Assembly (NCBI GenBank): GCA_018992565.1
Contig: JACVGW010000009.1
Coordinates: forward strand, 1 to 57,311
Source: Theionarchaea archaeon
Lineage (GTDB): Archaea > Methanobacteriota_B > Thermococci > Methanofastidiosales > SZ-28-30
Reading direction: 5' to 3'
DNA: 57,311 nt
Part shown: positions 32,574 to 51,816 of the stretch, in pieces
How positions within the stretch are numbered: the stretch's first letter is position 1
How the letters are laid out: each line of letters starts with the position of its first letter
Translations under genes and position numbers: made by a program
The notes under the pieces: generated by a model
What the model was told of the DNA's origin: nothing
Databases searched by the model: none
Seen by the model: the letters and a program-made list of their open reading frames with translations, nothing else

Positions 32574-33203
32574 TTACTCAATATAGGTGAGAATCTGTTG
32601 AACTGATTTGCGTGGCGGAGAATCAGGGTTATGATCGGGAATTCCAACAGGAACGAGGGCCAGTATCTCCCATGGCTCATGAATATTGAGAAGTCTTTCC
32701 AGTTCATCATGGGCATAGTATGGGATGCGAACCCAGCATGAACCATATCCACAGTCGAGAGCTGTCAGCAGGAGATTCTGAACTGCAGCCCCAACGCTCT
32801 GGACACTGACGAATCCCCCGTATCGATCAATGGCTCTATCTCTGAGGGCGCGTTCTTCTTGAAATATACGGAAATTTGGATCTCTCTCCAGGGAAAAGGG
32901 CATGACCAGCACTGCAAAGACCAGAGGTGCAGTCGAGAAAACCAATGAGGAGGCAATGCGCCGGGCCGCAGATTTATTATCTGTGTGGTTGAAGAAGGCA
33001 ACTCCCTCGTCATGGATAATGCGTCTCATCTCATCTCTATATCCCTTGTTTGTTATAGCGATAAACCGCCACGGCTGCAGGTTTCCACCACTTGGCGCCA
33101 GGGAAGCTGCGTGAATCATTTTTTCAATATCTTTTCTGGGCACAGGATCGGACTTGAATCGCCGGATGCTTCGCCTTTCACGTATGACAACTTGAAGATC
33201 CAT
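32574..33203 (-). CDS. Nitroreductase family flavoprotein
   Basis: 'RRSIRRF', 'APSGGNLQPWRF', 'GAAVQNLLL.A...GYGSCW'. Confidence 0.9.
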   Translation of the reverse strand: MDLQVVIRERRSIRRFKSDPVPRKDIEKMIHAASLAPSGGNLQPWRFIAITNKGYRDEMRRIIHDEGVAFFNHTDNKSAARRIASSLVFSTAPLVFAVLVMPFSLERDPNFRIFQEERALRDRAIDRYGGFVSVQSVGAAVQNLLLTALDCGYGSCWVRIPYYAHDELERLLNIHEPWEILALVPVGIPDHNPDSPPRKSVQQILTYIE

Positions 33204-33675
33204 ATAGACACCTACGAAGACACATCACTCCCAGTGCCGCTTTGTTGACCTGTGATATTCTGAAGAGTGATAGAGCTCCAGCAATCCACGTATCCGTAAA
33301 TGAATTGTGGTCTCCATCTTGGGCACAAGAGGTACTCGACAGAATCCAGATGCATTCATATAGGTTTGCCATACTTCAAGAGCAGTTACTTTTGAGGTGG
33401 AGCCCATGAAAGGACTAGTCTTTGATCCACGCAGGATACATCCCCTGTGAGACCCTGCGCTCTTCTGCCGGCTCTGCTTATCCGTTCTCACGCACACAGA
33501 GACTCTCTCCCGGATGAGTCGCCGTTTTTCCATGACGTTACCATGAGCACAGCCTGACTCCCACGTAATTTCAGCAGTTAATTTCCAAAAAAAACGACCT
33601 TTTATCCCTGAAAACTCATATAAACTTTCCTGACAAGAAGTCACATCTATGTGCTCTGTAATAAGAGGTGAAAAC

Positions 33676-34260
33676 ATGAAACCTTCGGACATAAATGCAG
33701 ACAAGGAGTATCTAGCATGGGATGAGAACTGCATCTGGTTGTGTAGAGAAAATGATGCTATCATTACGAGAATCCATTCAATTGGAGCGCAGCTCACCGT
33801 GAGGGTCAATGCAGAAGGGGTAAGCCTCTGGAAATTGTGTGATGGAACTCGGACTCTTGAAGACATCATTACTTTCCTGGAAGATGAGTACTATACCCCA
33901 CGTGAAATCCTGATACGAGACGTGGCATGTGCAGTGGAAGCTCTTTCAGGAATGGGATTGATTGTCACGAGAAAGGAAAAGAAGCAGTCTTTCCAGCATA
34001 TCTACAGTGTAGAAAACCATGTACGCTGGGCAGATGATGTAATACTCAGAGAAGAGGATGGAGAACTCATATTGATGAACCTGAGTACCAGTCATGTATA
34101 TGAGTTGCCTCATAAATTCCTGCCTATACTAGAAGAATGCAAAAAAGGCCACACAATAGCAGAAATCCAGAATCAGGTGGGAGAAGGGTGTGATGTAGTG
34201 AACTACGTGCTTGAATATCTGGACAACCTTGGTCTGATTGTTGTCAATTCCCAAGAGTGA
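33676..34260 (+). CDS. Tandem PqqD/RRE peptide-binding protein 1
   Basis: Two PqqD-like repeats ('NAEGVSLWKLCDGTRTLEDI...L...Y...DV...L...GLI' and a degenerate second copy). RBS GAGGTGA. Confidence 0.82.
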   Translation: MKPSDINADKEYLAWDENCIWLCRENDAIITRIHSIGAQLTVRVNAEGVSLWKLCDGTRTLEDIITFLEDEYYTPREILIRDVACAVEALSGMGLIVTRKEKKQSFQHIYSVENHVRWADDVILREEDGELILMNLSTSHVYELPHKFLPILEECKKGHTIAEIQNQVGEGCDVVNYVLEYLDNLGLIVVNSQE

Positions 34261-34265
34261 CTATC

Positions 34266-35624
34266 ATGAGAGTCAGTCTTTTCACACAGCTTTTGAAGAT
34301 GGATGAAGGGAGGTATCTTCTTCTCAATCCCGTCTCTGGGAACATACGTGTTGTAGATAATGAAGTCGCAGACTTCCTTTCAGAATATAGTGAGACAGGA
34401 TTGGATGGAGAGAGAATTGAAGGGCGGTTACTGGAAATACTCAAAAGAGAGGGGTATATCACTGATTTTACTGAAGAAGAGGAGAAAAATAGAATACTAG
34501 ATGCAAGTAGTGCTGTATCACAACGTCCTGTTTATGCGCATGCGATTATCATCACCTATAGATGTAACCTTGAATGTTCATACTGCATCAACAGTTCTTT
34601 GCTCGGTAGCGCTCCTTCCTGGCTGAATAAGAGAATCTCCAGAGATTCTGTTGACAAGGCCTTCGCCGTCATGAAGGATATGAAGGAAAAAACGGTAAGA
34701 CGTCATCCCATTTACGTGACAGGAGGGGAGCCCCTCCTTCCAGAAAACAGAGCGATTGTGGAGTATATACTGGATCTTTCTGCGCATTCAGGGGACAAGG
34801 TAGCTGCAAACACCAATGGATATTACCTTGCTCAATATGCTGATCTCTTTGAAAAGTATGGGACCTTCACCATGGCGGGAGTCACGCTTGATGGCCCCCC
34901 CACTGTGCACGACAGAAGAAGGAAGACAGGACAGGGCCCGGGTTCCTTCTGGAGAATCGTTGAAGGAATTGAGGCCATCAGGCCCCTTTCAATACATGTA
35001 GGCATTCGGGTCAATGTTGATAAAACGAATATTGATGCTCTTCCCGAACTTGTTGCCTTTTTTGAAGAGCGCGGATGGGCAGACGACAAGCATTTCTCGT
35101 TTTGTGTGTGCAGAGTTCTCAGGACAGGTACTCCACATGATGCCTGTCTCCTGACTCCGCTCGAGGCCATACAGAAGATAATTACCATGCATACAGAAGG
35201 TGTGCTACCTCGGTACATGAAATATGAATGTTCTTACAGCAACCCCGGGACTCTCTGGGGCACCTTGCAGGGAAAAGGACCGCTTCGTCCCCGATTGTAC
35301 TATTGTCCGGGTCTCGGTGAGACCTTCATATATGATCCTCATGGTGATATCTATGGTTGTCCACAGCTGGTGGGAAATCCGGAATACAGAATCGGAACAT
35401 ATGCCCCTCACTTCAAGCTGGAGCCCTTTCTTGATACGCTTAAGGCGAGGACGCCGTTGAACATGGCTGAATGCAGGGAGTGTACGTACGCTCTCTTATG
35501 TGGCGGAGGATGTGGCTACAATGCCCACATTGAACATGGCTCTTTCATGTCACCATATTGCGAGGAAACTGAGGCCTTCCTCACGTACTGGGTCCCCTTC
35601 TACCTCAAAAGACTCATTCAGTAG
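34266..35624 (+). CDS. Radical SAM/SPASM peptide maturase with N-terminal RRE (rSAM-1)
   Basis: CNLECSYC, GGEP, 'HDRRR...GSF'; SPASM C..DPHGDIYGC...CRECTYALLCGGGC...PYC. Confidence 0.9.
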   Translation: MRVSLFTQLLKMDEGRYLLLNPVSGNIRVVDNEVADFLSEYSETGLDGERIEGRLLEILKREGYITDFTEEEEKNRILDASSAVSQRPVYAHAIIITYRCNLECSYCINSSLLGSAPSWLNKRISRDSVDKAFAVMKDMKEKTVRRHPIYVTGGEPLLPENRAIVEYILDLSAHSGDKVAANTNGYYLAQYADLFEKYGTFTMAGVTLDGPPTVHDRRRKTGQGPGSFWRIVEGIEAIRPLSIHVGIRVNVDKTNIDALPELVAFFEERGWADDKHFSFCVCRVLRTGTPHDACLLTPLEAIQKIITMHTEGVLPRYMKYECSYSNPGTLWGTLQGKGPLRPRLYYCPGLGETFIYDPHGDIYGCPQLVGNPEYRIGTYAPHFKLEPFLDTLKARTPLNMAECRECTYALLCGGGCGYNAHIEHGSFMSPYCEETEAFLTYWVPFYLKRLIQ

Positions 35625-35647: not shown

Positions 35648-36349
35648 ATGGCAGAGGTATCACAGAGACCCTGGGAAGCTGCGTACAGTAAGGGAGTAGG
35701 CATAGTGGAGAGACCTGCGTTTCTTACCTATCTGGCAGCTGAGATGATGAAGAGGGAAACCCTCAAGAGCGTACTGGATATTGGCTGTGCCGCAGGCAGA
35801 AATTCAGTCTTCCTGGCGAGAGAAGGATTTGATGTCGTGGGCATTGAACCACAGTCAACTATTCTGGAAGTAGCACGCAGCAAAGTATCTGATGAGGGTG
35901 CAAAGCCACGGCTTCTGCTGGGAGACCTGGTTGATCTTCCCTTCAAGGAGTCATCATTTGATGCTGTCCTGTGTTTATATGTCCTCATGTTCCTCCCAGT
36001 GGTGAAATTGGCCACGTGCGTGCGGAATATTTTTCAAGTCCTTCGGGACTCAGGAATGGCATTTTTTGCTTTCTATTCTCCTGAAGACGCAAGTTTTGAA
36101 ATGGGAGAATGTCTCCATGAGAACACCATACGATGGGACAGGAGGATGGGCCCCTGGGCAGGAATTGAAGCACACTATTTCACTCACGAGGAAATTCTTC
36201 ACCTTTTCAACACAGTTGAGATTCTATCTCTTCACCTGGTAACGCAGAGGGAAACACATGATGGAGTACCCCATGTACATAGGTTCTGGCAGGTTATTTG
36301 CAGAAAAGACTCCACAACCTGTACTCCCGTGAAAGAGAGAACAGGGTGA
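35648..36349 (+). CDS. Class I SAM-dependent methyltransferase (island-associated)
   Basis: 'VLDIGCAAGR', 'LPFKESSFDAVLC'; begins 23 nt after rSAM-1. Confidence 0.88.
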   Translation: MAEVSQRPWEAAYSKGVGIVERPAFLTYLAAEMMKRETLKSVLDIGCAAGRNSVFLAREGFDVVGIEPQSTILEVARSKVSDEGAKPRLLLGDLVDLPFKESSFDAVLCLYVLMFLPVVKLATCVRNIFQVLRDSGMAFFAFYSPEDASFEMGECLHENTIRWDRRMGPWAGIEAHYFTHEEILHLFNTVEILSLHLVTQRETHDGVPHVHRFWQVICRKDSTTCTPVKERTG

Positions 36350-36371: not shown

Positions 36372-37538
36372 TCAGAGGCTTCTTCTTCCTGGTGGTACAG
36401 AACATTGCGGATCTGGCATGAATGGATCACCATAGTATCCGTAGGAAATGCATGAGGCCCCTCCAGAGCAGAGGTATGGAGCATTGGTATTGAAATAGCA
36501 GGTCTGGCACTTCCCTTTGACGTGCTTTGACTTCCGTCGGAGTTTCCACAGGAGAGGGTGGCCCCATATGTCCTGGATGTCTTGTGTCAGGATATTGCCT
36601 ATAGGAATGGGAAGTCTCCGACATGGATAGACACTACCATCTTCCATGACATTGATGATATTCTTACCAATGTTGCCACCGATTCCGCATGAAACTCCAT
36701 TCTTGGCGTGATTTGATGTATCAGCAGGGTCTTGGTATATGACAGGCCAGTCACATCGAGAGCGAGTGAGCACGGGCTTGGGAATAAGGGGCGCAGCTTC
36801 TCTCGTCATGGAATCAAGATCGTCGCTGAGGTTCCTGTATAGAGCATACGTCTCCTGAGAAGTCAGCATTGTGTTCAGCATCTCTTTCCCCCTTCCCCAG
36901 GGCACGAGGCGAGTCACTGTCAATACATCCACATCTAGTTCCTTTGCCAGGGCCATAATGTGGAAGGCATCTTTGTAGTTGCCCTTATGAACAACAAAGT
37001 GCATATGGACCTCCAGTGATGTGAGAGTCAGTGTCCTGATAGCCTGTATCGCTTCCTGGAATCTCCCGCTGCCCCGAATTCTATCATGGGTTTCAGCCGA
37101 AACACCGTCCACACTGATTTGAATATAATTGACAGCTCTGTTTTCCTCGAGTCTATCAGCAAGTGTCCTGGTGGTGGTAGATCCATTGGACAGGACTGCA
37201 ACATGGACGGGAGTCAGGTGATCTTCAACATAATCCTGCAAGTAGGCAAGGATATCCCAGAAGTGAGGTGAAATTGTGGGCTCCCCTCCAGATATCCAGA
37301 TATAGGGAGTTCTTCCCCACTTCTTCATGGTTGTCAGGAACTTGTCAATCACGAGCATACACTGATCAAGTGGCATGTCATAGTGCGGTTCATCTTCATT
37401 GTAGCAATGTCTGCAGCGCAGGTTACACCGACCGGTGATCTGAAATTGCATAACAAAGAACTTCCTCCTGTCAGTTCTCTCAGTTGTCCTGATATCTCTC
37501 TTTCTCGAGACGTAACCTGGTTCACTCGGTTCTCTCAT
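36372..37538 (-). CDS. Radical SAM/SPASM protein without RRE (rSAM-2, class II)
   Basis: 'MQFQITGRCNLRCRHCY', GGEP, 'TRLVPWGRG', 'RCDWP'; SPASM 'YPCRRLP...CQTC...CSGGASC...DPQC'. Confidence 0.9.
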   Translation of the reverse strand: MREPSEPGYVSRKRDIRTTERTDRRKFFVMQFQITGRCNLRCRHCYNEDEPHYDMPLDQCMLVIDKFLTTMKKWGRTPYIWISGGEPTISPHFWDILAYLQDYVEDHLTPVHVAVLSNGSTTTRTLADRLEENRAVNYIQISVDGVSAETHDRIRGSGRFQEAIQAIRTLTLTSLEVHMHFVVHKGNYKDAFHIMALAKELDVDVLTVTRLVPWGRGKEMLNTMLTSQETYALYRNLSDDLDSMTREAAPLIPKPVLTRSRCDWPVIYQDPADTSNHAKNGVSCGIGGNIGKNIINVMEDGSVYPCRRLPIPIGNILTQDIQDIWGHPLLWKLRRKSKHVKGKCQTCYFNTNAPYLCSGGASCISYGYYGDPFMPDPQCSVPPGRRSL

Positions 37539-38907
37539 GAGGTATTCCCTCTCTCCATTTTCCTCTCATCTCGTAAAGAAACTGCAGGTATGAATTGACC
37601 CAGGAGTCTGTGATGTCTCGCGGTAGTGGGCATATTGGATTCTCAAAAGACCCCGTTGTCTGGAAAGCTTCGTATGCGCAGCCTGAGCCGCAGAGCAACC
37701 CATACTTACATCTCCTGCACTGCTCAATACGTGCTACATTCCTGGTTCTCATTTTCTGACGTTCTTCGTCATAGAGTTCGAATGTTGGGGAATATCTGCC
37801 GATTTCATGTTGCAGGACAGTGCACGAATAGATTATCCCTTCAGGGTCAAATACAAATCCGTATGGCGTATAGCAGCAGTTGACAGACAGCAGGTCCTCT
37901 CTTGCTTCGAATTTTCGAGACGCAGAGAGCTTCAACCATGAGTCAAAGAAATTTGTGAAGGTATTATAGAAGTTGAAGAGTCGAGTTGAAGGAAATTTCC
38001 TGTGTAATTCCATGAGTCTTTCCAGCATGTCATACCATTTCAAAAAATAGGGATATTCTGAGCTCACGAATTTTATTGTACTGACTACAAATGAGAGATG
38101 CCTGTCTTCATGCCATCCTCGAGATATCACAAAGTCTGCAACCTCAGGCAAATACTCTATGTTCTGGCTATCTGCATTGAACTTCAGTACTATGTTCACA
38201 TGTTTACGTGCTTCCTCTATATTCTGCACGATAGACTCAAATGTCCCACTGCCATCTCTTCTGATTCGTCGTTTGTCATGAATTCGCTGAGGACCATCCA
38301 GGGATACCTTAACCGGTATCTGATATTTTCTCAGCAGCGGAAGATATACATCCATATCCACTCCATTTGTGGTTATGCTGAGAAGGTTCATCTTCCTCTT
38401 TGCAGCCTCATGAAGAATTGAAGAGACTATGTCTTCATGTGCGGGCAGCAGAGGTTCCCCTCCTGTCAGGGACAATTGGGAAGAGGTGATCCCTTCCTGA
38501 TCAAAGAGCTTATCAAGGGCAGCACTGAACAAATCAATGGGCAGCTTCTTTGAGGGTGAGTCATTCTTTATATCAGATCGTAATCTCCGGAAGCAGTAGA
38601 CGCACTTCAGCTGGCAATCGTAGGAAGGTATTGCAATACATACTGCTATCTTCCTCCATGTCGCTGCCTCTTTTTGGTGCAGATCTTCTACGAGTGCTTC
38701 ATCCTCGCGATAGTCTTCGACTATGTAATGATTTCTTTTTAGGAATTCTTGAGTATCTTCCTGTCCTCCCCCGGTTCTATCGGCGTCTGGGCATGTGAGT
38801 ACTCTAATGACATCCTCATCGACTTCGTGCATCGTTCCTCGAAGGAAGTTCATTAGGAGATACTTCCCTTCCGAGACTTTACAGTAATGAGTGTACGGGC
38901 TGATCAT
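37522..38907 (-). CDS. Radical SAM/SPASM peptide maturase with N-terminal RRE (rSAM-3)
   Basis: CQLKCVYC, GGEP; SPASM 'DPEGIIYSC...CRRCKYGLLCGSGC...PIC'. ATG 38907 after GGAGG, directly downstream of precursor P1. Confidence 0.9.
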   Translation of the reverse strand: MISPYTHYCKVSEGKYLLMNFLRGTMHEVDEDVIRVLTCPDADRTGGGQEDTQEFLKRNHYIVEDYREDEALVEDLHQKEAATWRKIAVCIAIPSYDCQLKCVYCFRRLRSDIKNDSPSKKLPIDLFSAALDKLFDQEGITSSQLSLTGGEPLLPAHEDIVSSILHEAAKRKMNLLSITTNGVDMDVYLPLLRKYQIPVKVSLDGPQRIHDKRRIRRDGSGTFESIVQNIEEARKHVNIVLKFNADSQNIEYLPEVADFVISRGWHEDRHLSFVVSTIKFVSSEYPYFLKWYDMLERLMELHRKFPSTRLFNFYNTFTNFFDSWLKLSASRKFEAREDLLSVNCCYTPYGFVFDPEGIIYSCTVLQHEIGRYSPTFELYDEERQKMRTRNVARIEQCRRCKYGLLCGSGCAYEAFQTTGSFENPICPLPRDITDSWVNSYLQFLYEMRGKWREGIPHERTE

Positions 38908-38943: not shown

Positions 38944-39093
38944 CTAAAACCACACCATGCTACAATGGCACTCCTGGCCTAGGCACGCACAGCATGCGCA
39001 GCCACAAATACCGCACGGATTGTTATCTGGGGTAGTGCCTTCGATGTTAATGGTTATTCCTTGCCACGTTTTGCCTACTTCCTTGATTTTCAT
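38944..39093 (-). CDS. RiPP precursor P1, 49 aa, 8 Cys: MKIKEVGKTWQGITINIEGTTPDNNPCGICGCACCACLGQECHCSMVWF
   Basis: Hand-translated. RBS AAGGTGAG, TATA CTTATAAG at 39133-39140, Cys-free leader plus Cys-dense core, first gene of the rSAM-3/rSAM-2 operon. Confidence 0.85.
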   Translation of the reverse strand: MKIKEVGKTWQGITINIEGTTPDNNPCGICGCACCACLGQECHCSMVWF

Positions 39094-39475: not shown

Positions 39476-40447
39476 TCAAAGGTTCTTTGCTATATGATAT
39501 TCAATGATAGCATGTTCTTCACTGTGGATTATCTCTTTTTTCAGCAGCTTATTTGTCAATGAGAGCAGACAGGGTTGGAACCCCTGGAATCCTTTGAAGT
39601 CGTTGCTTCTGACAATGTCCTTCTTCAGATGTGCGAGCACAAATAGTCTGTCTGAAACTCTGAAGAAAAGACTTGATGTAGGAATCTGGGAAAACAGGTC
39701 TATGATAAAGTCCTCGTACTCTGTTCGAAAACAGAAGAGGTAGGGATCATATTCTGAGATTCCTTCAGGGAAGTAACTGGTGGTGACAGTGCAGCACGTG
39801 GGCAATTTTGCCAGGAACTTGTAAACCTTCGCTGTAGTGATCAAATGCTCTCTCATTACGGGAATGAACGTTTTCCTCAGGTTATGCCTGAAATACGTCA
39901 GTAGGTTCTCATCTTCTGAATCCCACTCTGCGGTCTCATTCCAATGTGTCCTTATGGCACATTGGGGGTTATATCTCAGAGGGCTAAAATCGTCTATCTT
40001 ATTCCTGATGGTTTCAAGCGCTTGATTCCATGAGCAGTCTGGAGCGTAGGACATGTAGTAATCGGAACGAGGAGCTTCTACCAGGATTTCCCCACTAATG
40101 TCCACTCTTTCTTTTGAAATAATCCATGAATTTGCAAACCCAGTCATTTTCGCATGATAGGATATATTTGAGTCTTTTTCAAGACGTGTGTACGTTTCGA
40201 GAGGATCCTTTGCACTACAAAAAGAAATGTATTCCTTCATGTTAGCATATGAACGCTTCCTGACATGAGGACCCAGTATGTGACTTCCTTCCATTGCTTC
40301 TTCTATTCTCCTGCTCGCGGTGCGGGGATCCACGCCAAGAGCAGCTGCTATCTCTTTCTTCTTGATTCGAGGGTTCTTGAACCACAGAATTTCATACAGC
40401 CTCCTATACTGCTTCATCCTATCCTCAAGACTGATGAGCATTTTCAC
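39476..40447 (-). CDS. ~320-aa winged-HTH putative transcription regulator, paralog A
   Basis: N-term 'NPRIKKKEIAAALGVDPRTASRRI' is an Lrp-like HTH; paralogous over its full length to 50851-51816. Confidence 0.7.
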   Translation of the reverse strand: MKMLISLEDRMKQYRRLYEILWFKNPRIKKKEIAAALGVDPRTASRRIEEAMEGSHILGPHVRKRSYANMKEYISFCSAKDPLETYTRLEKDSNISYHAKMTGFANSWIISKERVDISGEILVEAPRSDYYMSYAPDCSWNQALETIRNKIDDFSPLRYNPQCAIRTHWNETAEWDSEDENLLTYFRHNLRKTFIPVMREHLITTAKVYKFLAKLPTCCTVTTSYFPEGISEYDPYLFCFRTEYEDFIIDLFSQIPTSSLFFRVSDRLFVLAHLKKDIVRSNDFKGFQGFQPCLLSLTNKLLKKEIIHSEEHAIIEYHIAKNL

Positions 40448-41107: not shown

Positions 41108-41272
41108 ATGAAAGCAATCTCACTAAACAAGAAGCTGTGGACAGATGTGACTATGGACAGTCTCGATTTTGTGTCTCCAGACTGTGAGGGACCTCTGATC
41201 AATGGTTGCGGAGGAGGCGGCTGCTATTTCAGTCCGTGTCCGCCCTGGATTTGGCCATGTAACTTCTTTTAG
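41108..41272 (+). CDS. RiPP precursor P2, 54 aa, 5 Cys: MKAISLNKKLWTDVTMDSLDFVSPDCEGPLINGCGGGGCYFSPCPPWIWPCNFF
   Basis: Hand-translated. RBS GAGGTGA, T-tract after the stop, paralog of P3 with mostly synonymous leader differences. Confidence 0.9.
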   Translation: MKAISLNKKLWTDVTMDSLDFVSPDCEGPLINGCGGGGCYFSPCPPWIWPCNFF

Positions 41273-41278
41273 ATTCAC

Positions 41279-41296
41279 TTTTTTTCTCTTTTTCTT
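41279..41296 (+). terminator. Oligo-T terminator after P2
   Basis: TTTTTTTCTCTTTTTCTT just after the stop codon. Confidence 0.55.
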
Positions 41297-43085: not shown

Positions 43086-44237
43086 CTAGTGAAGAACGTG
43101 ATTCTCCCTATCTGTACCTGCAGGTGCCTGAGAGGGGTCCACGGGACATTGCGGGTCTGGCTGGAAGGGGTCATTGTACACTGCATACGCAATACAGGAT
43201 GCACCTCCGCTGCAGATACGGGGAGCTTCTACGTTGAAAAAGCACTCCTGACACTTGCCCTGGACAAATCTGTGTTTTCTCCGGAATTTCCACAACAGGG
43301 GATGCTGCCAGATCGTCATGAGATCCTCTTCAAAGACATTCCCTATTTTGATGGGCATCCGCCTGCAGGGGTACACATCCCCATTTTCCTGAATATTGAT
43401 ATACGATCGCCCCACTCCACATCTGAAGCCATTCTTGGTGGAGGCCTCAGGAGTGGAAGGATCAGGGTAAATAATAGGCCAGTCACACCGAGCTCGAGAA
43501 ATGAGGGCCCCTGGTGAGTCATCAGCATCCATGATTTCATCCAGATCATCACTGAGGCTCTTAAAAAGGTTCTTGACTTGTTCTGGAGAGAGCATCTTCT
43601 CATAGAGCTTTCCCCCCCTTCCCCAGGGGACGAGGCGGGTCACTGTCAGTACGTCTGCCCCCAGCGCTTTTGCTACGTCGGGCATGGTGAAAGCATCATC
43701 ATAATTATCTCTGTGAACCACAAAATGAATGTGGGTTTCTATTGCAGTTGGGGTTAGCAGCTCAAGTGCAGCAACTGCTTTCTCAAAACTTCCTTTCCCG
43801 CGTATAGCATCGTGTGTTTCAGCTCGTGCTCCGTCCAGGCTTATCTGTACATATATGTCTAAGGGGTGCTCCTCAAGTCTTTTGACGAATTCCTCTGTGA
43901 AGTTGATTCCGTTGGAGAGAACAGCCACTAATGAATGCGCATTTATTAAGTCCGAGTGGATCTTAATGTAGTCAAGGATGTGCCAGAACTGTGGATGGAG
44001 AGTAGGCTCACCGCCAGTCAGCCAGATAACGGGTGTTCTTTTCCATAGGCAACACAAAGCAAAGAATTGGTCAAGTATGTTTTCACAGCTCTCTACAGGC
44101 ATATCCTGATGATCTTCTGCATCATCATAGCAGTGCGTGCAGCGGAGGTTGCATCGTCCGGTAATTGAAAGTTGCAGTATGAAACCTGCTTCCTCTCTTT
44201 TTTCAGAATGTGAACCTTCACCATATATTTCGTCCAC
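43086..44237 (-). CDS. Radical SAM/SPASM protein without RRE (rSAM-5, class II; paralog of rSAM-2)
   Basis: 'LQLSITGRCNLRCTHCY', 'TRLVPWGRG', 'RCDWP', 'YPCRRMP...CQEC...CSGGASC...DPQC'. GTG 44237 after GGTGA; ATG 44291 is an alternative start. Confidence 0.88.
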   Translation of the reverse strand: MDEIYGEGSHSEKREEAGFILQLSITGRCNLRCTHCYDDAEDHQDMPVESCENILDQFFALCCLWKRTPVIWLTGGEPTLHPQFWHILDYIKIHSDLINAHSLVAVLSNGINFTEEFVKRLEEHPLDIYVQISLDGARAETHDAIRGKGSFEKAVAALELLTPTAIETHIHFVVHRDNYDDAFTMPDVAKALGADVLTVTRLVPWGRGGKLYEKMLSPEQVKNLFKSLSDDLDEIMDADDSPGALISRARCDWPIIYPDPSTPEASTKNGFRCGVGRSYINIQENGDVYPCRRMPIKIGNVFEEDLMTIWQHPLLWKFRRKHRFVQGKCQECFFNVEAPRICSGGASCIAYAVYNDPFQPDPQCPVDPSQAPAGTDRENHVLH

Positions 44238-44642
44238 TTTATCACCACATGATTTTTCCTGACTGTCATTCTCAGCAGATTTCTGCAGCATGGTTCTATA
44301 TGGTTTGGCAAGAGGAGAAATGCTGCTTTTCTTTTGCGCCCTCTTGCAGCTTTCCAAAAGAAAAGAACAGGCAATAGGGGAATATTTCGTCTGTCAGTAA
44401 GGACTCTCTTACCAATATCTGTTTTTATTTTGTTGCGATAGTTATCTGTTGAAAGAATACTATTTGAAGAAGCCACTCCCGTAAAATTTCCGTTATGCCC
44501 CCTGTAGAAAAAACATACAGTCACTGTTTCATAAACTCATATAAGGTTGGTTAGACACTTCTACATAACTGAGAAGAAGGATGCTGGGACAGCCCAGTTT
44601 GTGCTTCAGGAAGACTTTCAGGGCAAGAATGAAGGAGACCTC

Positions 44643-46082
44643 ATGAGAATGAAGGAGCGTGAGAGTATGAAACCTCTAAAGAAAAGCATTGTCATTGATT
44701 TGAAAGATGGAGATTATCTTCTTATCAATCCGTATCGAGGACTCGGTGATGTTGTAGATAAGGAGACTCTCAAAGAGCTTTCTTCTCAAGATGTAGAGAT
44801 TTCCAATGGGACCATGCAGGCTCTTGCACGGAGAGGACATCTGGTAGAGGATGGAGAAGAGGACGACCTTATTCAGGCATTGAGAAGACGTGCCAACAAA
44901 ATGCACACAGAGTCGAAAAAGATCAAAGGTCATGGGATAGTAATAACATATGACTGCAATCTCCGCTGTCCTTATTGTTACGAGAGACATCTGTTTGCAA
45001 AAGAACAGAAGCGCCGTGCCACTATGAGCAGGAAAACTGTAGATATGCTTTTTGAAACAATACAGGTTATTGATTCAGAAGACAACGATGGAGGGGCCTC
45101 GGAGAATCGAGAAGAGAACCCCATGACGCTCATAGGAGGAGAACCTCTGCAGAAAGAGAACTTCTCCATCGTTGAATACATACTCAAAAAAGGTGCAGAG
45201 CTGGGATACCCCTTTTCTATTGTTACCAATGGGGCTGATCTCTCCCATTTTGCTCCCCTCTTATCTCAATATGACATCAAGAAGATCCAGATTACTATTG
45301 ACGGCGTCAAGGAAGTGCACGATAAGAGACGATACCGAAAAGGTAATCGAGGCAGCTTTGATGATATAGTAAAGGGTATAGATGAAGCGCATAAGAATGG
45401 TCTTCCTGTGGTTATTAGAATTAATGCTGATTCTGACAATATCGACAGAGTCCCGGAATTTGCAGAGTTCTACATGGACAAGGGATGGTATCCAGACATA
45501 CCAGCTCACGTATCAAATGTAACAGCCTCGGAGTGTCTGATGTACTCTCCCCTCATTACTGCTGAGCAGTTTACTAAAAAGACTATTGATCTCTTCCTGA
45601 AAGATGAGAGGATGAAAGTCTTCCGGCATTCACTCCTGACTCACAACGATCTCTTGAGACATCTCGTAAGGGACGAGGAGTTTAGCTTGAAGTTCTGGTA
45701 TTGTGGTGCTCAAGTATCAATGCTGATGTATGACCCACTGGGGGACATATATCCCTGCTTTGAAGCCGTCGGCCATGATAGTCAGAAGATTGGAGAATAT
45801 ATTCCAGAATTGAAGTTCAATGAGACCATGAACCAATGGCAGAGTCGAACAGTATTCACCATTCCTGAGTGCCTGGAATGTAACCTGGCATTTATCTGTG
45901 GCGGAGGATGTGCATACGGTGCGATAAGGACTATGGGGTCACTGAACAAGCCCTATTGCGACAGGATGAAATTCATCATTGAACATGAATTTCCCTATGT
46001 ATATCACCTGATGAAGACGGAAGAGGGGGGTTTCAAAAAAGCAGAGTCACAGGGCGGAATTCAGAAGCCCTCGCATCCTTGA
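44643..46082 (+). CDS. Radical SAM/SPASM peptide maturase with N-terminal RRE (rSAM-6)
   Basis: 'YLLINPYRG', CNLRCPYC, GGEP; SPASM 'WYCGA...DIYPC...CLECNLAFICGGGC...PYC'. Start 44643 or 44667. Confidence 0.9.
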   Translation: MRMKERESMKPLKKSIVIDLKDGDYLLINPYRGLGDVVDKETLKELSSQDVEISNGTMQALARRGHLVEDGEEDDLIQALRRRANKMHTESKKIKGHGIVITYDCNLRCPYCYERHLFAKEQKRRATMSRKTVDMLFETIQVIDSEDNDGGASENREENPMTLIGGEPLQKENFSIVEYILKKGAELGYPFSIVTNGADLSHFAPLLSQYDIKKIQITIDGVKEVHDKRRYRKGNRGSFDDIVKGIDEAHKNGLPVVIRINADSDNIDRVPEFAEFYMDKGWYPDIPAHVSNVTASECLMYSPLITAEQFTKKTIDLFLKDERMKVFRHSLLTHNDLLRHLVRDEEFSLKFWYCGAQVSMLMYDPLGDIYPCFEAVGHDSQKIGEYIPELKFNETMNQWQSRTVFTIPECLECNLAFICGGGCAYGAIRTMGSLNKPYCDRMKFIIEHEFPYVYHLMKTEEGGFKKAESQGGIQKPSHP

Positions 46083-46228: not shown

Positions 46229-46855
46229 ATGAAAGAAAATCAACAAAAGTATGTCCGATGGTCAGAAAATTGTGTCTGGCAACCAGTTGGAGAAATGCTT
46301 TTCATTGCGAAAGTTCTCCACCATAATGAAGGACTCACCCCAGCCCGGGAGAAGAATGACGGCAAGAAGTTGAATGGAGCAGGAAAAGACATCTGGGACC
46401 TTTGTGACGGTACCAGAACCATGGAGGAGATTGTGAATCAATTGATGGAAGAGTATACAGGTGACCCTGAAGAGATTCACAGTGATGTACAGAATGCAGT
46501 CTCAAAACTCATAGAAGAAGAATTCCTGGTTTGGGGAGAGAAATCAGAGAAATGTCACCCCCTTGAGATTAAGATGAAGGAGTATCCGACCTGGGATGGC
46601 AATGTGTTGTGGAACCAGGTTGATAATGAAGTTGTTGTCATTAATAATGTAACAGGACTGGACTATGGGTTCAGGGACGACGTGGCTGAGACATGGAAGC
46701 TCTGCAGTGGGAAGCAGTCGCTGGACGAAATCCTCAGTATACTAGAGGAAAGAGGAATCATCAATGAAGAAAATCCGCCTGTTCGATTCAAACTATTGAT
46801 CAAGCAATTCATCAACATTGGCGTTGTCACCATGAGAAAGGAGCCTGGTTCCTGA
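46229..46855 (+). CDS. Tandem PqqD/RRE peptide-binding protein 2
   Basis: 'LNGAGKDIWDLCDGTRTMEEIVNQLMEEY' and 'AETWKLCSGKQSLDEILSIL'. RBS GAGGAGGT. Confidence 0.85.
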   Translation: MKENQQKYVRWSENCVWQPVGEMLFIAKVLHHNEGLTPAREKNDGKKLNGAGKDIWDLCDGTRTMEEIVNQLMEEYTGDPEEIHSDVQNAVSKLIEEEFLVWGEKSEKCHPLEIKMKEYPTWDGNVLWNQVDNEVVVINNVTGLDYGFRDDVAETWKLCSGKQSLDEILSILEERGIINEENPPVRFKLLIKQFINIGVVTMRKEPGS

Positions 46856-47241: not shown

Positions 47242-47409
47242 ATGAAGGCAATTTCACTGAACAAGAAGCTATGGAGAGATGTGGCCATGGGTGATCTTGA
47301 TTTCGTATCTCCAGACTGTGATGTACCGCTGGTGACTGGCTGTGGGTCTATACCGTGCCCCTCCCTTTGCATACTGCATTGCTATCCCCATATGTGTATT
47401 CACTTCTGA
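47242..47409 (+). CDS. RiPP precursor P3, 55 aa, 6 Cys: MKAISLNKKLWRDVAMGDLDFVSPDCDVPLVTGCGSIPCPSLCILHCYPHMCIHF
   Basis: Hand-translated. RBS AGGAGGTGA; 27/35 N-terminal residues identical to P2. Confidence 0.9.
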   Translation: MKAISLNKKLWRDVAMGDLDFVSPDCDVPLVTGCGSIPCPSLCILHCYPHMCIHF

Positions 47410-47566
47410 GCAACAGCTTTTTACAACATCCCTGCCCCCATATCGCCCATTGCAGCTTTTGCGGTAGGGATGGTAACCTGTGATGCATTGCGAGAGACAC
47501 AAAGAAAACTTCACAGCAACTCAGAACCCACAAGACTGAAGAATGATTCCAATGAAAGATGTTGTA

Positions 47567-48925
47567 TTATTCTCCCGGGATATTTTCCTGGGTTCTTTTT
47601 CTTTCTCCCTGAATCATTTTCCCGAACAAGGGATAATAGACATCTACTGCTTGGTTTGAGAACTCGCAATCAGGCTTCAGAAGGTCCCCCTTGGTCTGGG
47701 CAGCATAGTTGCCACAACCTCCCCCACAGATCATGGCATACCTGCAGTGTCTGCAAGATTTCATATTGAAAATTGTTCTTTCTTTCCATTGATTGAATCG
47801 CTCATTGAAGGTGACCTCAGGATAGTATGTGCCAACTGCCTCTTCTTTATTGCCTAGAGTGTCAGTACAGAGGTAGATATCTCCGAAAGGATCGAACCAT
47901 GTCTGCGATAGATAGGAACGGCAGTAACTCATTTGGGGAAGCCACTTATCTACAAAACCAAGTTTTTGGGCTATTGGACCTAACCCTCTCAGGAAAACGT
48001 CTCTGAGAACCTCATCCCCCAACAAGAACTGCAGGTCTTCTTTTTTCAGGTTATGCATAAAATTGTAGCAACCTCCTGGTGTATGATGGCGAACTGGCGA
48101 GAGGTAGATCATATTGTCTCTCTGATCCCATCCTTTCTCGTGGGCAAATTCCATAAAACTGGGCAATGTCCTCACTGTGGAATGATCAATATTGACTCTC
48201 ACATACACAGTAAAGCCTGCTTCTGCGAGCTGATCTATAGATTCAACAATCTGGCAAAAAGAACCAGTTCCATCAGCTCTTTTCTTCCTCCTGTTGTGGA
48301 TTTCCTCTATTCCATCTACTGTGATTTGGAGTGATGTGATCTTGCTCTCAAGGAGGAGAGGGAGAAAGAGGCTGCTCTCCAATCCATTGGTTACAATAAT
48401 GAAGGATTTATCACAGCGCGTTCCTCTTGTCAGGATGTACTCGATGAGTTCATAGTTGCTTGAGATGAGAGGTTCTCCACCCAGTAAATGTATGGGTGCT
48501 CTTGTATGAGGATTCAGAGTTTCCATTGCCTTGAAAGCTGCATCCACCTGCGAATGAGTCATTTTTCGCTGTAACCAGGGTTCATCTCGTGTGAAGACAG
48601 ATGAAACATAGCAGTAGTCACACCGCATGTTGCAGTCATACGTGGGTATAAGAGCAAACAGTGTGTGGTCTCTGTGCAGACTTTGAATTGATTCCAGGCT
48701 CTTGAATGCTTTTTCAGTTTCCTCTTTTGGAGAGAGTTCTGTGAGAAACCCCTGGGAAACGAGAGCAGACACTTCTTCTGAAGTCTCTTGTTCAGGATTC
48801 ACACCATTGAGGATTCGCAGTATTTCCTCTGGGCCAAAGAGGATAGCCCCTGTGAATGTATTAACAAAAAGAAATTCTCTGTTCTGGAGAGGTATCACCA
48901 GGACGTATCGACTACGTCTGAGCAA
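47567..48925 (-). CDS. Radical SAM/SPASM peptide maturase with N-terminal RRE (rSAM-7)
   Basis: CNMRCDYC, LGGEP; SPASM 'SYC...DIYLC...CRHCRYAMICGGGC...PDC'. Probable start TTG 48925 after GGAGGGAGG, coupled to the rSAM-8 stop. Confidence 0.88.
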   Translation of the reverse strand: MLRRSRYVLVIPLQNREFLFVNTFTGAILFGPEEILRILNGVNPEQETSEEVSALVSQGFLTELSPKEETEKAFKSLESIQSLHRDHTLFALIPTYDCNMRCDYCYVSSVFTRDEPWLQRKMTHSQVDAAFKAMETLNPHTRAPIHLLGGEPLISSNYELIEYILTRGTRCDKSFIIVTNGLESSLFLPLLLESKITSLQITVDGIEEIHNRRKKRADGTGSFCQIVESIDQLAEAGFTVYVRVNIDHSTVRTLPSFMEFAHEKGWDQRDNMIYLSPVRHHTPGGCYNFMHNLKKEDLQFLLGDEVLRDVFLRGLGPIAQKLGFVDKWLPQMSYCRSYLSQTWFDPFGDIYLCTDTLGNKEEAVGTYYPEVTFNERFNQWKERTIFNMKSCRHCRYAMICGGGCGNYAAQTKGDLLKPDCEFSNQAVDVYYPLFGKMIQGERKRTQENIPGE

Positions 48926-50255
48926 GGTCCTCCCTCCGTGATCTATATAGATGGGGGACGACCACATTGAGAATTTCATGATATTCCAAGCAGAGAGGCC
49001 TGTCAAGTGACCCATATTTCTCCAGAGCTGCAAACCCACACCCCCCACCACATAAGAGAGCATACTTGCATTCTTTACATTCTGGAATGGTGAATATCGT
49101 TCTTTCTCTCCATTGACTGTATTTTTCATTCCACTTTAGTTCAGGATCGTACCTGCCGACTCTTCCAGCTTCGTCACCCACATGTTCAAAACAGACGTAG
49201 AGATCTCCGAAGGGATCATAAATAATCATGTCGTCGTTTGCCTCGCAGTACCAGAAGCGGGGAGCCCCTAATTCTCCCTTGAGGAAGAGCCTTTCAAGTA
49301 CTGCGATTCCTTTGTGGTCAAAAGAAACGGTGTTCAACTCTTGGTGAGAAGTTGCGTTGGAAACAACAGCCGTATACACATCCTTCCTTTGCATGGAATG
49401 CTTGTAAGTGCCACAGGTTTTCTCGAAGATAGGTGAGAAGTGCATGGAAAGGAGAGGATTATCCACCCATCCTTTTTTCCTGGCGAAATCTACTACTTCA
49501 GAGAGGGCACCAAGATTTTCACTATCAAGATTTGTCCTGAGAAAGACTCTCAGATTCTCCTTGAGTGCTGCGTCTATTCCAGCTGCAATCTGGTCAAAAG
49601 ATCCAGTACCATCCTTTCTTATTCGTCGTTTATCATGGAGGTTCTTTGGTCCGTCAATGGTGACCTGAAGGGTGACATTCCGGCCCCGCAGCAGGTCCAT
49701 ATACTGACATAGTGATACCCCATTTGTGAGTATGATGAAGGAATGTCCAAGCGATTCTCCCCTTTCCAGGATTTCTTCGACTGCCGGCATAGTTTTTTCC
49801 ATCAACGGCTCTCCACCATACAGGGCGATTCTACCTTTCTCAGTTCCATCAACTTCAGCAATGGCCTCGAATACCTTATCAATAAGTTCCTGACTGATGA
49901 CTGTGCTCAACCACTGGGTTCCTTTTTTCCGGAGATCTGAAAGAAAGCAGTATGGGCACACCAGGTTGCAATCATAGGTTGGAATGATCATATGTGTATG
50001 CAGGTTCTTCCTGTTTTCTGTAAACCTCTCATAGAGAGTTCGTATGTCTTCGAATTCCTCTTCAGGAGATGCTTGCGTTATATGTCCTCTCTCATGAAGG
50101 AAGTTGAGGATTGAAGGCTCCCCCTGGGAGAGGTCACTCTGAAGCAGGTTGATAACATCAGTGTCCACAACATCAACAGCTCCTGTTAAGGAATTGATGA
50201 GCAGGTATTCATCCTCATCTGCCTGTACTGCAATGCAGTATGTGCTCATTCTCAT
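48912..50255 (-). CDS. Radical SAM/SPASM peptide maturase with N-terminal RRE (rSAM-8)
   Basis: CNLVCPYC, YGGEP; SPASM 'WYC...DLYVC...CKECKYALLCGGGC...PLC'. ATG 50255 after AGGTGA. Confidence 0.9.
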   Translation of the reverse strand: MRMSTYCIAVQADEDEYLLINSLTGAVDVVDTDVINLLQSDLSQGEPSILNFLHERGHITQASPEEEFEDIRTLYERFTENRKNLHTHMIIPTYDCNLVCPYCFLSDLRKKGTQWLSTVISQELIDKVFEAIAEVDGTEKGRIALYGGEPLMEKTMPAVEEILERGESLGHSFIILTNGVSLCQYMDLLRGRNVTLQVTIDGPKNLHDKRRIRKDGTGSFDQIAAGIDAALKENLRVFLRTNLDSENLGALSEVVDFARKKGWVDNPLLSMHFSPIFEKTCGTYKHSMQRKDVYTAVVSNATSHQELNTVSFDHKGIAVLERLFLKGELGAPRFWYCEANDDMIIYDPFGDLYVCFEHVGDEAGRVGRYDPELKWNEKYSQWRERTIFTIPECKECKYALLCGGGCGFAALEKYGSLDRPLCLEYHEILNVVVPHLYRSRREDLAQT

Positions 50256-50264
50256 GATATTCAC
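50052..50264 (-). repeat. 213-bp inverted repeat, copy 2 (RBS plus RRE of rSAM-8)
   Basis: Reverse-complement match to 41600-41812. Confidence 0.92.
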
Positions 50265-50850
50265 CTTTTTCTTCATCCAGCCCGCACCAGTCCTACGGAA
50301 AAGACATTTACGAGGAGTTCTTTCATGAAAAGTCAACCTATTATTATCCTTGCAACAATAAACATCAGAGAATACTTATATGTATTTCCAGGGCACGAAA
50401 TGTATTTATTTTCTGGCAAAGGATCAAGAAGGGTTCCCTGTGATCTAATTCGTATCTCCACCTGGCATCCGTATTCACCTCCAGGTATGAGAAAGAAGTG
50501 CCAGGGCCCTATCCTTTCACTGCATGTTCCCGTCCCGGGGTCTGGAGGAGACAGTCTGATGTAGGACATGAGGCATATGAACAAGTTGTATTGTCACTAT
50601 CCTCATTGGTTCTGTTCGTGTGTTCAACTTGGATTCTTTCATTCTCAGGACGTAGTCCTCACACCCTTTGTGTGGAACTGCTCCCTTCTACAGCTCCCAC
50701 CTTTTCCAACCCCCCTTGCATGGGTTGTCCTTCTTCTATTGACATAGTTAGATTCTCATTCGATAAGTTTATAAGGTCTTGATAAGAATATTCTTAACGA
50801 ATGAGAATGATCTCACAAAACAGAATGTTTTAAAGGAGGACTGAGCGTTA

Positions 50851-51816
50851 ATGGATACAAGTAAAGAAGTCAGGAGGAGACATTACCGTGCGATCTACGA
50901 ACTTTTCTGGTCAGAGAACGCCCGAATCCACCTGAAGGATATTGCATCGAGACTCCGGGTCAATCCCCGTACGGCACGGAGAAGAGTAGAAGAAGCTTTT
51001 AGCCAGGGCTACGTTACAGGACCTCAGCTCAGGAAACGGTCATATGCGAATATGAAGGAATATGTTTGCTTCGTCAATTGTGAAAACCCCACTGAAGCAT
51101 ATCTCGATCTTAGCCAGGATGCAGCCGTTGTATATCACGCACGACTGGCAGGATTCGCCAGTTTATGGGTTAGTTCAACAAGAAAAGTGACCATTGATGG
51201 CACTCCCGTGATTAAAGGCCTGCGTTCAGACTATCATGTGTCATTTGCGCCCTATCGTTCATGGGAAAAGGCAATAGAAGTCATGCGGGGAAAGATTGAA
51301 TCCTTTCATCCAGAGTGTTATGAACCCACATCGCACATTAGCTCCCACTGGGATGAAACCATAACGTGGGATGAAGAAGATGAAAAGCTCTTTCGATACT
51401 TCGAGTCTGACTTGAGGAGGATTTTCGTACCTGTCATGAAGAAACATCTCATCAGCACAGGGAAAATCTACCAGTTCCTGGAAAGACTTCCTCAATGCTG
51501 TACTGTCACAACAAGCTTCTTTCCAGAGGGGATCTCAGCTTACGACCCTTATCTCTTTGTTTTTGGGACTGAATATGAGGATTTCATCGTTGATCTCTTT
51601 TCACAGATGCCGACATCAGCTTTCTTTTTCAAGGTCTCAGACATGCTCTTTCTTCATGCGCATGTAAAGAAGGACTTGATGAGATGCGAGGATTTGGGTG
51701 CTCCTAGCATACGTCAGCTGCCCATCCCGGGTCTCATCAGTGAACTCCTCAAGAAGGGAATCATTGAGAGTGAAGAACACGCTGTGGTTGAGTATCACTG
51801 GACAAAGAGTCTCTAG
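50851..51816 (+). CDS. ~320-aa winged-HTH putative transcription regulator, paralog B
   Basis: HTH 'NARIHLKDIASRLRVNPRTARRRV'; shares 'RKRSYANMKEY' and 'FPEGIS.YDPYLF.F.TEYEDFI.DLFSQ' with paralog A. Confidence 0.7.
   Translation: MDTSKEVRRRHYRAIYELFWSENARIHLKDIASRLRVNPRTARRRVEEAFSQGYVTGPQLRKRSYANMKEYVCFVNCENPTEAYLDLSQDAAVVYHARLAGFASLWVSSTRKVTIDGTPVIKGLRSDYHVSFAPYRSWEKAIEVMRGKIESFHPECYEPTSHISSHWDETITWDEEDEKLFRYFESDLRRIFVPVMKKHLISTGKIYQFLERLPQCCTVTTSFFPEGISAYDPYLFVFGTEYEDFIVDLFSQMPTSAFFFKVSDMLFLHAHVKKDLMRCEDLGAPSIRQLPIPGLISELLKKGIIESEEHAVVEYHWTKSL

Follow-up and report, generated by a model that had tools for sequence, protein, structure and literature searches.

Gene clusters for ranthipeptides and sactipeptides, which are peptides synthesized ribosomally and modified post-translationally (RiPPs), matured by radical S-adenosylmethionine (rSAM) enzymes with a SPASM domain, have been reported across the Archaea by antiSMASH-type mining, according to one survey (PMC12144867). 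A second study describes CrpC of Methanococcus voltae, a TIGR04463 enzyme that installs ranthionine links on CrpA, a 28.8-kDa repeat protein, and discusses the pair as possibly metal-related (PMC13692751). As far as the literature we searched extends, CrpC is the only archaeal rSAM thioether enzyme to have been characterized biochemically, acting on a large protein, and no archaeal rSAM-modified peptide has been characterized. In the CteB- and PapB-type systems known to us there is one enzyme per cluster. We analysed a 57,311-nucleotide stretch of DNA (the window) from a Theionarchaea archaeon (assembly GCA_018992565.1, contig JACVGW010000009.1), a member of what is an archaeal class in the NCBI taxonomy. 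The stretch from ~31.5 to 50.8 kb is probably an accessory biosynthetic island for RiPPs that are matured by rSAM enzymes. We favour this reading, with small open reading frames (ORFs) of the island as the substrates, because a family of precursors lies beside rSAM genes, the modelled enzyme architecture is CteB-like, and a model of the leader bound to the RiPP recognition element (RRE) of an enzyme passes its controls.

The island encodes eight rSAM/SPASM enzymes, rSAM_A to rSAM_H, and three candidate precursors, P1, P2 and P3 (Table 1). Pfam searches over the 21 ORFs between 32.5 and 51.8 kb assigned eight to Radical_SAM (PF04055), two to PqqD (PF05402), one to the class I methyltransferases and one to the nitroreductases, with two weak winged-helix matches. 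This inventory largely agrees with a first-pass annotation of the window, which had listed eight genes with CxxxCxxC and SPASM motifs (a script finds CxxxCxxC and SPASM-type Cys in 8/8), a methyltransferase, a nitroreductase and two paralogous regulators. Its two tandem PqqD/RRE genes are indeed two PF05402 genes, but they are 12 kb apart rather than in tandem and each appears to be two-halved. Of the Pfam families by which it expected the enzymes to be recognizable, PF13186 matches only the two short ones, rSAM_B and rSAM_E.

The island resembles several described systems without coinciding with any of them. By its model, rSAM_D has the same three-part architecture as CteB (5WHY/5WGG), with an N-terminal RRE, an rSAM core and a 7-Cys SPASM domain, yet the two are only 17-19% identical. 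CteB and PapB systems likewise act on Cys-rich, leader-bearing substrates, and the PapB model matches all six long enzymes; the island enzymes nevertheless fall far below the SCIFF and PapB cut-offs, P1-P3 match no SCIFF or other model, and the island instead has four or five rSAMs per precursor together with PqqD proteins, a methyltransferase and a nitroreductase. The long enzymes align with CefB from model position 1, and the Cys of P2 at positions 34, 39 and 44 fall on every fifth residue, but the enzymes score 110-168 bits where the cut-off is 600, no NCBIfam model matches the precursors, and a literature search for the 'Cys-every-fifth' CefB family found no paper. The stand-alone PqqD proteins and short RRE-less rSAMs (rSAM_B and rSAM_E) recall PqqD/PqqE, MftB/MftC and ACGX, but the scores of the short enzymes are all below cut-off, the island PqqD proteins are two-domain and, unlike in PqqD/PqqE-type pairing, a PqqD gene adjoins an F-type long rSAM rather than a short one in five loci (contigs C62, C97 and C30 of the same genome, and loci L041 and L043). 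CrpC is also an archaeal RRE-rSAM-SPASM enzyme acting on a Cys-rich substrate with a leader-like N-terminus; it is a single enzyme with the 28.8-kDa CrpA (PMC13692751), in contrast to the eight enzymes and 49-55 aa peptides found here.

The ranthipeptide/sactipeptide-like rSAM RiPP is thus a kind already known, and the island is an unusually enzyme-rich form of it. The earlier proposal of an undescribed archaeal RiPP system is supported computationally as regards a RiPP island, and the word undescribed is right at the level of the family only. What is novel is a precursor family without a curated model, served by enzymes that by sequence fall into none of the curated families; the conserved grouping of four or five rSAMs for each precursor, accompanied by a double PqqD, a methyltransferase and a nitroreductase; an apparent exchange of the RRE between rSAM_D and rSAM_H; and a genus-level expansion of rSAM/SPASM genes. 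Our literature search found no paper on this system; the supplements of PMC12144867 and PMC13692751, which lay outside the search, could list clusters of this lineage.

The three precursors (MKIKEVGKTWQGITINIEGTTPDNNPCGICGCACCACLGQECHCSMVWF for P1, MKAISLNKKLWTDVTMDSLDFVSPDCEGPLINGCGGGGCYFSPCPPWIWPCNFF for P2 and MKAISLNKKLWRDVAMGDLDFVSPDCDVPLVTGCGSIPCPSLCILHCYPHMCIHF for P3) share a layout in which a Cys-free start with the pattern MK..K.W..PD is followed by a Cys-containing part and a C-terminal Phe. Each has a GGTGA/GGAGG site 6-8 nt 5' of its ATG, and TATA-like boxes lie upstream. Translations and sites agree with the first-pass description of three small genes of 49, 54 and 55 aa with ribosome-binding site, TATA box, Cys-free MK leader, Cys core and C-terminal Phe. 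A profile of P2, P3 and two other copies in the genome retrieves five members there at E <= 5e-10 (two on C13, the contig of the window, and one each on C29, C30 and C97), which share the leader motif MKAxxLNKKLW. With the five-member alignment, 13 proteins at E <= 0.01 were found among 16 candidates in a search of 5.8 billion proteins, and 19 proteins at E <= 0.001 in 1.84 billion representatives; the 19 include P2 itself and two long, probably spurious proteins. In public metagenomes the family thus amounts to about 20 clusters. Some of the records come from a 'Candidatus Methanofastidiosia archaeon' or a 'Theionarchaea archaeon', and homologues are filed as 'hypothetical protein' in public records of metagenome-assembled genomes (MAGs), so the earlier description of the precursors as unannotated does not hold everywhere. 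The family itself is unrecognized, as had been claimed: NCBIfam gives no credible match for any of 21 family members or for P1, and Pfam none for P1-P3 and three further members.

Conservation within this family is concentrated in the leader. Mean pairwise identity among the 21 members is 66% over residues 1-13 and 26% over residues 14-33; Met1, Asn7, Lys9, Trp11, one Gly and one Cys do not vary at all, and the first Cys falls at residue 25-35 in 21/21. In P0004, a strain variant of P3, 7 of the 55 residues are changed, 5 of these within the last 12, and all six Cys are kept. The genes for P2 and P3 share a direct DNA repeat of 117 nt (79% identical) that spans both gene starts. P1 has one known homologue, P0016, which is 92% identical and retains 8/8 Cys. 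Because the leader family is conserved and stands beside island-type rSAMs elsewhere, and because the homologue of P1 keeps all of its Cys, we conclude from these comparisons that the small ORFs are real genes. Other searches were less productive. P2 alone gave one credible match among 60 relatives, in the same-genus genome G001, its other matches (E = 0.04-0.7) being dismissed as long frames or frames with stops. A pattern scan of the genome contigs with the five-row alignment gave 34 pattern matches, none confirmed, and in the Atlas P2 had no match that scored 0.9 or more. A P1-like ORF on contig C140 (GTG start 15941) is a lead only: the similarity is marginal, its score being reached 42 times when the leader was shuffled 2000 times and 9 times in as many shuffles of the whole sequence.

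Precursors of this family adjoin rSAM genes in the window, on C29, C30 and C97, in G001, and in L042, L043 and L044. The last three are metagenome loci found with the family profile, and the co-occurrence anticipated in the first-pass annotation was borne out in 3/3 of them, where homologues of the island rSAMs lie beside the precursor. On C29, and at the syntenic position of G001, which has kept the pair, a D-type rSAM comes immediately after a precursor, and orthologues of rSAM_D stand beside precursors on C29, in G001 and in L043. The order in L043 is precursor, D (63% identical), PqqD (46%), F (54%), rSAM and methyltransferase; in L044 an H-type gene lies beside the precursor. In L042 (1512-5145) three tandem precursors follow a B12-binding rSAM, probably a methylase, and a SPASM protein, and the leader family is therefore also paired with a B12-rSAM. 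On C30, a run of PqqD, F-type, precursor, short E-type, G-type and H-type genes repeats the set centred on P3 in the window, with proteins 46-58% identical; its G-type protein is 54% identical to rSAM_G and likewise has the H-type gene upstream. C140 repeats the set on the P1 side (PqqD, A-type, methyltransferase, short rSAM, nitroreductase), here beside a pair of ABC-2 transporter genes, with PqqD, short rSAM and nitroreductase in one co-directional run. Across these loci, a conserved leader, a variable core and a precursor next to modifying enzymes are found together. The earlier division of the island into two related modules, around P1 and around P2/P3, is only loosely right: the P1 part resembles the C140 set and the P2/P3 part the C30 set, but P1 shows no significant relationship to P2/P3 and one of the two regulators is not specific to the island.

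The six long enzymes (A, C, D, F, G and H) all carry the canonical SPASM core CX2CX5CX3C. CefB (NF038107) is the best NCBIfam family for every one of them, and TIGR04463 (84-150 bits, cut-off 525) is second best for 5/6; PapB (NF047865) gives 94-132 bits against a cut-off of 340 (97.1 for rSAM_C, 132 for rSAM_F) and the SCIFF maturase TIGR03974 68-100 against 425. The alignments begin at model position 1-8, and the best matches are all to peptide maturases (CefB, TIGR04463, PapB, Clo7bot and geopeptide). rSAM_F scores 51.2 bits with the SPASM model TIGR04085 (cut-off 27). For rSAM_D we found 119 relatives at E <= 1e-20, about 12 of them at 56-65% identity; the remainder are ~30% identical and include proteins from bacterial MAGs. 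In an alignment of 82 of these sequences the invariant Cys are C96, C100 and C103 of the rSAM motif and seven C-terminal SPASM residues (C339, C357, C395, C398, C404, C408 and C424). The AlphaFold2 (AF2) model of rSAM_D is of high quality (predicted local distance difference test score, pLDDT, 94.9; predicted template-modelling score, pTM, 0.92) and places three strands and helices ahead of the rSAM core. As modelled, this N-terminus is an RRE-like winged helix, giving the enzyme the architecture RRE + rSAM + SPASM. Consistent with this assignment, the best solved structure in a Foldseek search is CteB (5WHY; E = 1.8e-20, TM 0.64, 460 columns, 19% identity), followed by TigE, anSME, ChlB and SuiB.

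A model of rSAM_D in complex with P2, built with purpose-built alignments, scores 0.74, against 0.00 for the best control; the mark applied is reached by 116 of 157 solved complexes and by 2 of 215 mismatched pairs. Between runs, the agreement is 52% of contacts or more. The confident contacts put residues 1-12 of P2 against rSAM_D residues 18, 23-31, 33-34, 37 and 45-56, that is, the most conserved residues of the leader meet the third strand and helices of the RRE. The model supports binding of the P2 leader to the RRE of rSAM_D.

The N-terminal domain also sets rSAM_D and rSAM_H apart from the other enzymes. The two are identical at 61 of 67 N-terminal residues (91%) against 125 of 377 elsewhere (33%), while in every other paralogue pair compared the N-terminal and remaining identities are within ~0.2 of each other. 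An inverted DNA repeat of 213 nt, 92% identical, links 41600-41812 with 50052-50264, and the leaders of P2 and P3 are near-identical. These sequence relationships suggest to us that the leader-binding domain was recently exchanged between two enzymes that differ in their catalysis and would serve the same leader. The D/H repeat is a point at which DNA contigs break in four runs, which come from four studies and two of which are flagged as possible sources; the contigs cover 29-30 of the 30 island bins in three runs and 13 of 30 in run X18. Summed contig word-depths, which are not copy numbers, are raised at the repeat bins in two of the four runs (~1.3-fold in X3; in X13 ~1.5-fold in the first bin but lower in the second) and not in X18, a picture weakly compatible with a two-copy repeat.

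The scheme that we propose begins with translation of P1, P2 and P3 with a Cys-free leader, whose conserved first 12-13 residues are predicted to pair as a strand with the N-terminal RRE of long rSAM/SPASM enzymes. This tag would dock on the RREs of the D and H types and probably also on the diverged N-terminal domains of the F and G types. Several enzymes would then act in turn on the Cys-rich core, installing cross-links, with P2 and P3 the presumed substrates of rSAM_D, rSAM_H, rSAM_F and rSAM_G, and P1 that of rSAM_C and rSAM_A. The short rSAM_B and rSAM_E, which have no RRE, would probably be served by the stand-alone two-domain PqqD proteins, and the methyltransferase and the nitroreductase-type flavoenzyme may tailor the product. 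Because Cys is the conserved residue of the core, and because the nearest families and the nearest fold are thioether synthases, we lean, by analogy, towards Cys-derived thioether cross-linking (sactionine or ranthionine) as the reaction. A bolder picture is possible but doubtful: a combinatorial system of one sediment-archaeal genus, in which a private precursor family with a shared N-terminal tag is worked on by four or five mechanistically different rSAM/SPASM enzymes per 50-residue peptide, RREs swapped by recombination recruit new catalysts, and the hyper-cross-linked products have unseen topologies and perhaps unseen chemistries. Such products might have their use in the handling of sulfur or metals and not in antibiosis, which is conceivable because the island lacks a peptidase and an exporter.

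Several observations weigh against this interpretation as a whole. None of the eight enzymes reaches the cut-off of any named curated family, the best score being 168 bits against 600, and because of this the assignment of their chemistry rests on analogy. The short enzymes score about equally against the haem enzymes AhbD/NirJ and against peptide maturases. Pfam PqqD was matched in none of the five N-terminal domains of long enzymes that were tested. P1 has a single known homologue; it is not significantly related to the P2/P3 family (profile E = 1.9) and is not among the 15 best matches shown, the last of which is at E = 1.1. The Cys-X-X-X-Asp/Asn acceptor motif of PapB-type substrates has no obvious repeated counterpart in the cores of P1-P3. 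In the complex model the own fold of P2 is uncertain (partner pLDDT 47), and because RRE-leader complexes have already been solved (CteB, SuiB, ChlB) the pass may partly reflect likeness to them. Finally, Pfam identified no leader peptidase or exporter among the ORFs of the island or its near flanks; both may be encoded elsewhere.

An alternative is that the small ORFs are incidental and the rSAMs act instead on proteins, haem-type cofactors or sulfatase-like targets. The similar scores of the short enzymes against AhbD/NirJ fit such a role, as do matches of the long enzymes to the anaerobic sulfatase maturase at 52-79 bits and the presence of anSME among the structural matches. We nevertheless consider it highly improbable, given that in genomes and metagenomes alike the small ORFs keep their reading frame, ribosome-binding sites and Cys pattern and always stand next to these enzymes, that the complex model passes its controls, and that Pfam reveals no sulfatase or haem-pathway genes in the island. 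Another question is whether thioethers are the main modification. C-C cyclophanes on Trp, Phe or Tyr, or thiooxazole-type or cyclopropyl-type modifications, might instead be made on aromatic-rich cores: the P2 core has Tyr, Phe and Trp between its Cys, the long enzymes match the cyclophane-forming YhhB, FxsB and GrrM at 50-82 bits, the short enzymes give 121-133 bits with SbtM, a thio(seleno)oxazole maturase, and TigE, a cyclopropylglycine synthase, is the second-best solved fold. The presence of four or five different enzymes per precursor also invites more than one chemistry. Against this, the top families and the best fold are those of Cys-thioether maturases (CefB-type, TIGR04463/CrpC, PapB and CteB), and Cys are conserved throughout the cores and all kept between strain variants; chemistry that is mainly of a non-thioether kind is in our judgement rather unlikely.

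The same enzymology could also serve another purpose, with peptides that stay in the cell or keep their leader and act in metal or sulfur binding, in redox reactions or as a PQQ- or mycofactocin-like cofactor, rather than as exported antimicrobials. The island has neither a peptidase nor a transporter, although an ABC-2 transporter pair stands next to the related C140 set. With MftC the short rSAMs give 116-141 bits, and they are found together with PqqD-type chaperones and a flavoenzyme, an arrangement that echoes the logic of the MftB/MftC/MftD pathway; the higher of these scores, 140.6, is nonetheless below the cut-off of 265. P1-P3 end in Phe and the C97 and C30 precursors in Trp, but most family members end in ...LIC and so not in an aromatic residue. 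The only characterized archaeal relative, CrpC/CrpA, is discussed as possibly metal-related (PMC13692751). Variable cores, paralogous precursors and strain-level variation of the core, on the other hand, are more typical of natural-product RiPPs, and we judge such a purpose unlikely.

If the island is indeed a source of rSAM-matured peptides, it offers three short, synthesizable substrates, eight candidate enzymes and a testable rule, namely that leader residues 1-12 lie on the RRE strand. The D/H pair would be a natural domain swap, from which it could be learned how new chemistry is brought to an existing leader in RiPP pathways.

The limits of the island were set by synteny with G001, in which the flanks are collinear (18.5-31.5 kb and from the regulator Reg2 onward) with proteins 75-87% identical. 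The island is accessory, because these collinear flanks enclose in G001 only 2.5 kb, with an unrelated 329-aa ORF, in place of 19.4 kb. Since the island-less G001 has a syntenic orthologue of Reg2, this gene belongs to the conserved backbone, and the island ends at ~50.8 kb rather than at 51,816, the limit in the first-pass annotation. We found no tRNA genes in the window and no integrase or transposase domains among the ORFs scanned with Pfam, and therefore propose no mechanism of insertion. The window is contig C13 of a 154-contig, 2.8-Mb genome bin (G000) that is 88% complete. The DNA between 38.5 and 48 kb occurs near word-for-word (share 0.96-0.99) in 20 DNA runs from 7 studies of marine, estuarine, mangrove, soil or sediment metagenomes; 14 of these runs are flagged as possible sources of this DNA. 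Several ORFs called from their first start codon were too long, and their starts were corrected from family alignments and ribosome-binding sites. The ORFs at 33225-33869 (overlapping PqqD1), 39267-39479, 47470-47769 and 50333-50584 have no family and no paralogue, and the intergenic space of the island holds no further Cys-rich precursor candidates.

Table 1. Positions of the features of the island and its right edge, in coordinates of the window; CefB is NF038107, with a cut-off of 600 bits.
Feature	Position	Strand	Length (aa)	CefB bits	Remarks
Nitroreductase-family flavoenzyme	32574..33203	-	209		PF00881, 114.4 bits
PqqD1	33676..34260	+	194		PF05402, 39.8 bits; AGAGGTGA site upstream of start; start corrected to 33676
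rSAM_A	34266..35624	+	452	137.5	PF04055; CxxxCxxC at residue 100, CX2CX5CX3C at residue 403; start corrected to 34266
Methyltransferase, class I SAM	35648..36349	+	233		Methyltransf_25/11
rSAM_B	36372..37538	-	388, start uncertain		PF04055 and PF13186; without RRE
rSAM_C	37522..38907	-	461	109.7	PF04055; GGAGG before start; 36 nt downstream of P1; start corrected to 38907
P1 precursor	38944..39093	-	49		8 Cys; C-terminal Phe; translation and ribosome-binding site
Reg1, winged-helix regulator inside island	39476..40441	-	321		HTH_24, 21.8 bits
P2 precursor	41108..41272	+	54		5 Cys; C-terminal Phe; LNKKLW leader family
rSAM_D	41609..42961	+	450	168	AF2 model and CteB fold match; start corrected to 41609
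rSAM_E	43086..44291	-	~401, start uncertain		PF04055 and PF13186; without RRE
rSAM_F	44667..46082	+	471	155	Start corrected to 44667
PqqD2	46229..46855	+	208		PF05402, 66.1 bits, residues 45-100
P3 precursor	47242..47409	+	55		6 Cys; C-terminal Phe
rSAM_G	47567..48925	-	452	133	TTG start; GGAGG site before 48925; start corrected to 48925
rSAM_H	48912..50255	-	447	146	Start corrected to 50255
Reg2, paralogous regulator at right edge	50851..51816	+			Conserved backbone; 78% identical orthologue at G001 syntenic site
TCATATAAA copies	32305, 33616, 40975, 47109, 53683	+			

The short enzymes rSAM_B and rSAM_E are 52% identical to each other, and carry a variant SPASM motif, CX2CX9CX5C. Their NCBIfam scores all fall below cut-off: rSAM_B gives 141 bits with TIGR04053 (cut-off 395), 136.6 with ACGX TIGR04340 (400) and 115.8 with MftC TIGR03962 (265), and rSAM_E 157.7 with ACGX TIGR04340 and 140.6 with MftC TIGR03962. 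AlbA (NF012164) appears, among the matches listed, for the short enzymes only, at 58-83 bits against a cut-off of 850. Paralogues of rSAM_E that are 58-63% identical lie on C30 and C140.

Both PqqD proteins exceed the PF05402 cut-off of 23.4 bits. From sequence comparison each looks like two PqqD-like halves: the halves of PqqD2 align with each other (26% identity, E = 2e-4), the two-unit pattern is kept in seven relatives, and PqqD1 can be aligned to PqqD2 and its paralogues along both halves. In L043 and L041, too, a long rSAM is followed by a methyltransferase. The NCBIfam models closest to the nitroreductase are those for the C-terminus of FbiB and for BluB, both far below cut-off, with SagB at E = 0.007; its paralogue on C140, 63% identical, directly follows PqqD and the short rSAM. 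Reg1 and Reg2 (321-323 aa) are 53% identical, Reg1 has 16 relatives in the genome, and their HTH_24 matches are weak (21.8 and 19.3 bits against a cut-off of 21.9). The Atlas places Reg1 in an archaeal HTH_24-bearing cluster of 1210 members (score 0.96).

The 9-mer TCATATAAA may be a shared promoter or operator. P2 and P3 both carry it exactly 133 nt before the ATG, and the window has five copies against 0.51 expected, a count reached in 1 of 100 shuffles. Four copies are in the island: 60 nt before PqqD1, before P2, before P3, and at 32305, where no gene is obvious downstream. Of the 29 copies in the whole genome, 8 are no more than 3 kb away from an rSAM ORF, in a zone amounting to 7.6% of its length (p ~0.001, post hoc; the four copies in the island are not independent). 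The untranslated stretches around P2 are unusually long, with ~340 nt of apparently non-coding DNA downstream, between P2 and the corrected start of rSAM_D (41272-41609), and a ~100-nt leader implied by the TATA-like box.

The enzymes of the island belong to a wider expansion. In the genome, 53 ORFs align over at least 250 aa with island rSAMs and 47 of them hold both Cys motifs; CefB NF038107 has 54 matches at E <= 1e-10 (for example on C154, C52, C64, C105, C128 and C71). At E <= 1e-25, this genome has 30 CefB-like matches, its two congeners have 13 and 9, and each of the 38 further relatives that were searched has 0-2. Such an expansion at the level of the genus suggests that these uncultured sediment archaea invest heavily in peptide modification. 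The best CefB-like gene of the genome (C154:3359-4669, 388 bits) is still below the cut-off of 600. A different small Cys-bearing ORF (C154:3190-3306) precedes it, and the genome is suggested to hold further precursor families.

Some features of the surroundings are of separate interest. A heterodisulfide-reductase-like cluster at 22901-27250 of the window, conserved in G001, comprises a 4Fe-4S dicluster protein, a CCG-domain protein, an 893-aa HdrA-like flavoprotein and an MvhD/FlpD-like subunit. At 53926-55366 lie a PadR regulator and a putative membrane sensor pair that are missing from the syntenic site of G001, whose flanking genes directly adjoin each other; G001 and this genome therefore differ by a second small indel. 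Two rSAM sets have a DUF3795 protein a few kb away, at 28805-29266 of the window near the island and at L022:1691-2053 near the set on C97, which may be coincidence. The PqqD/F-type rSAM set on C62 is flanked by a MatE efflux gene and a glycosyltransferase, likewise in G001, and an integrase-core (rve) fragment (L020:427-876) lies 3 kb from it.

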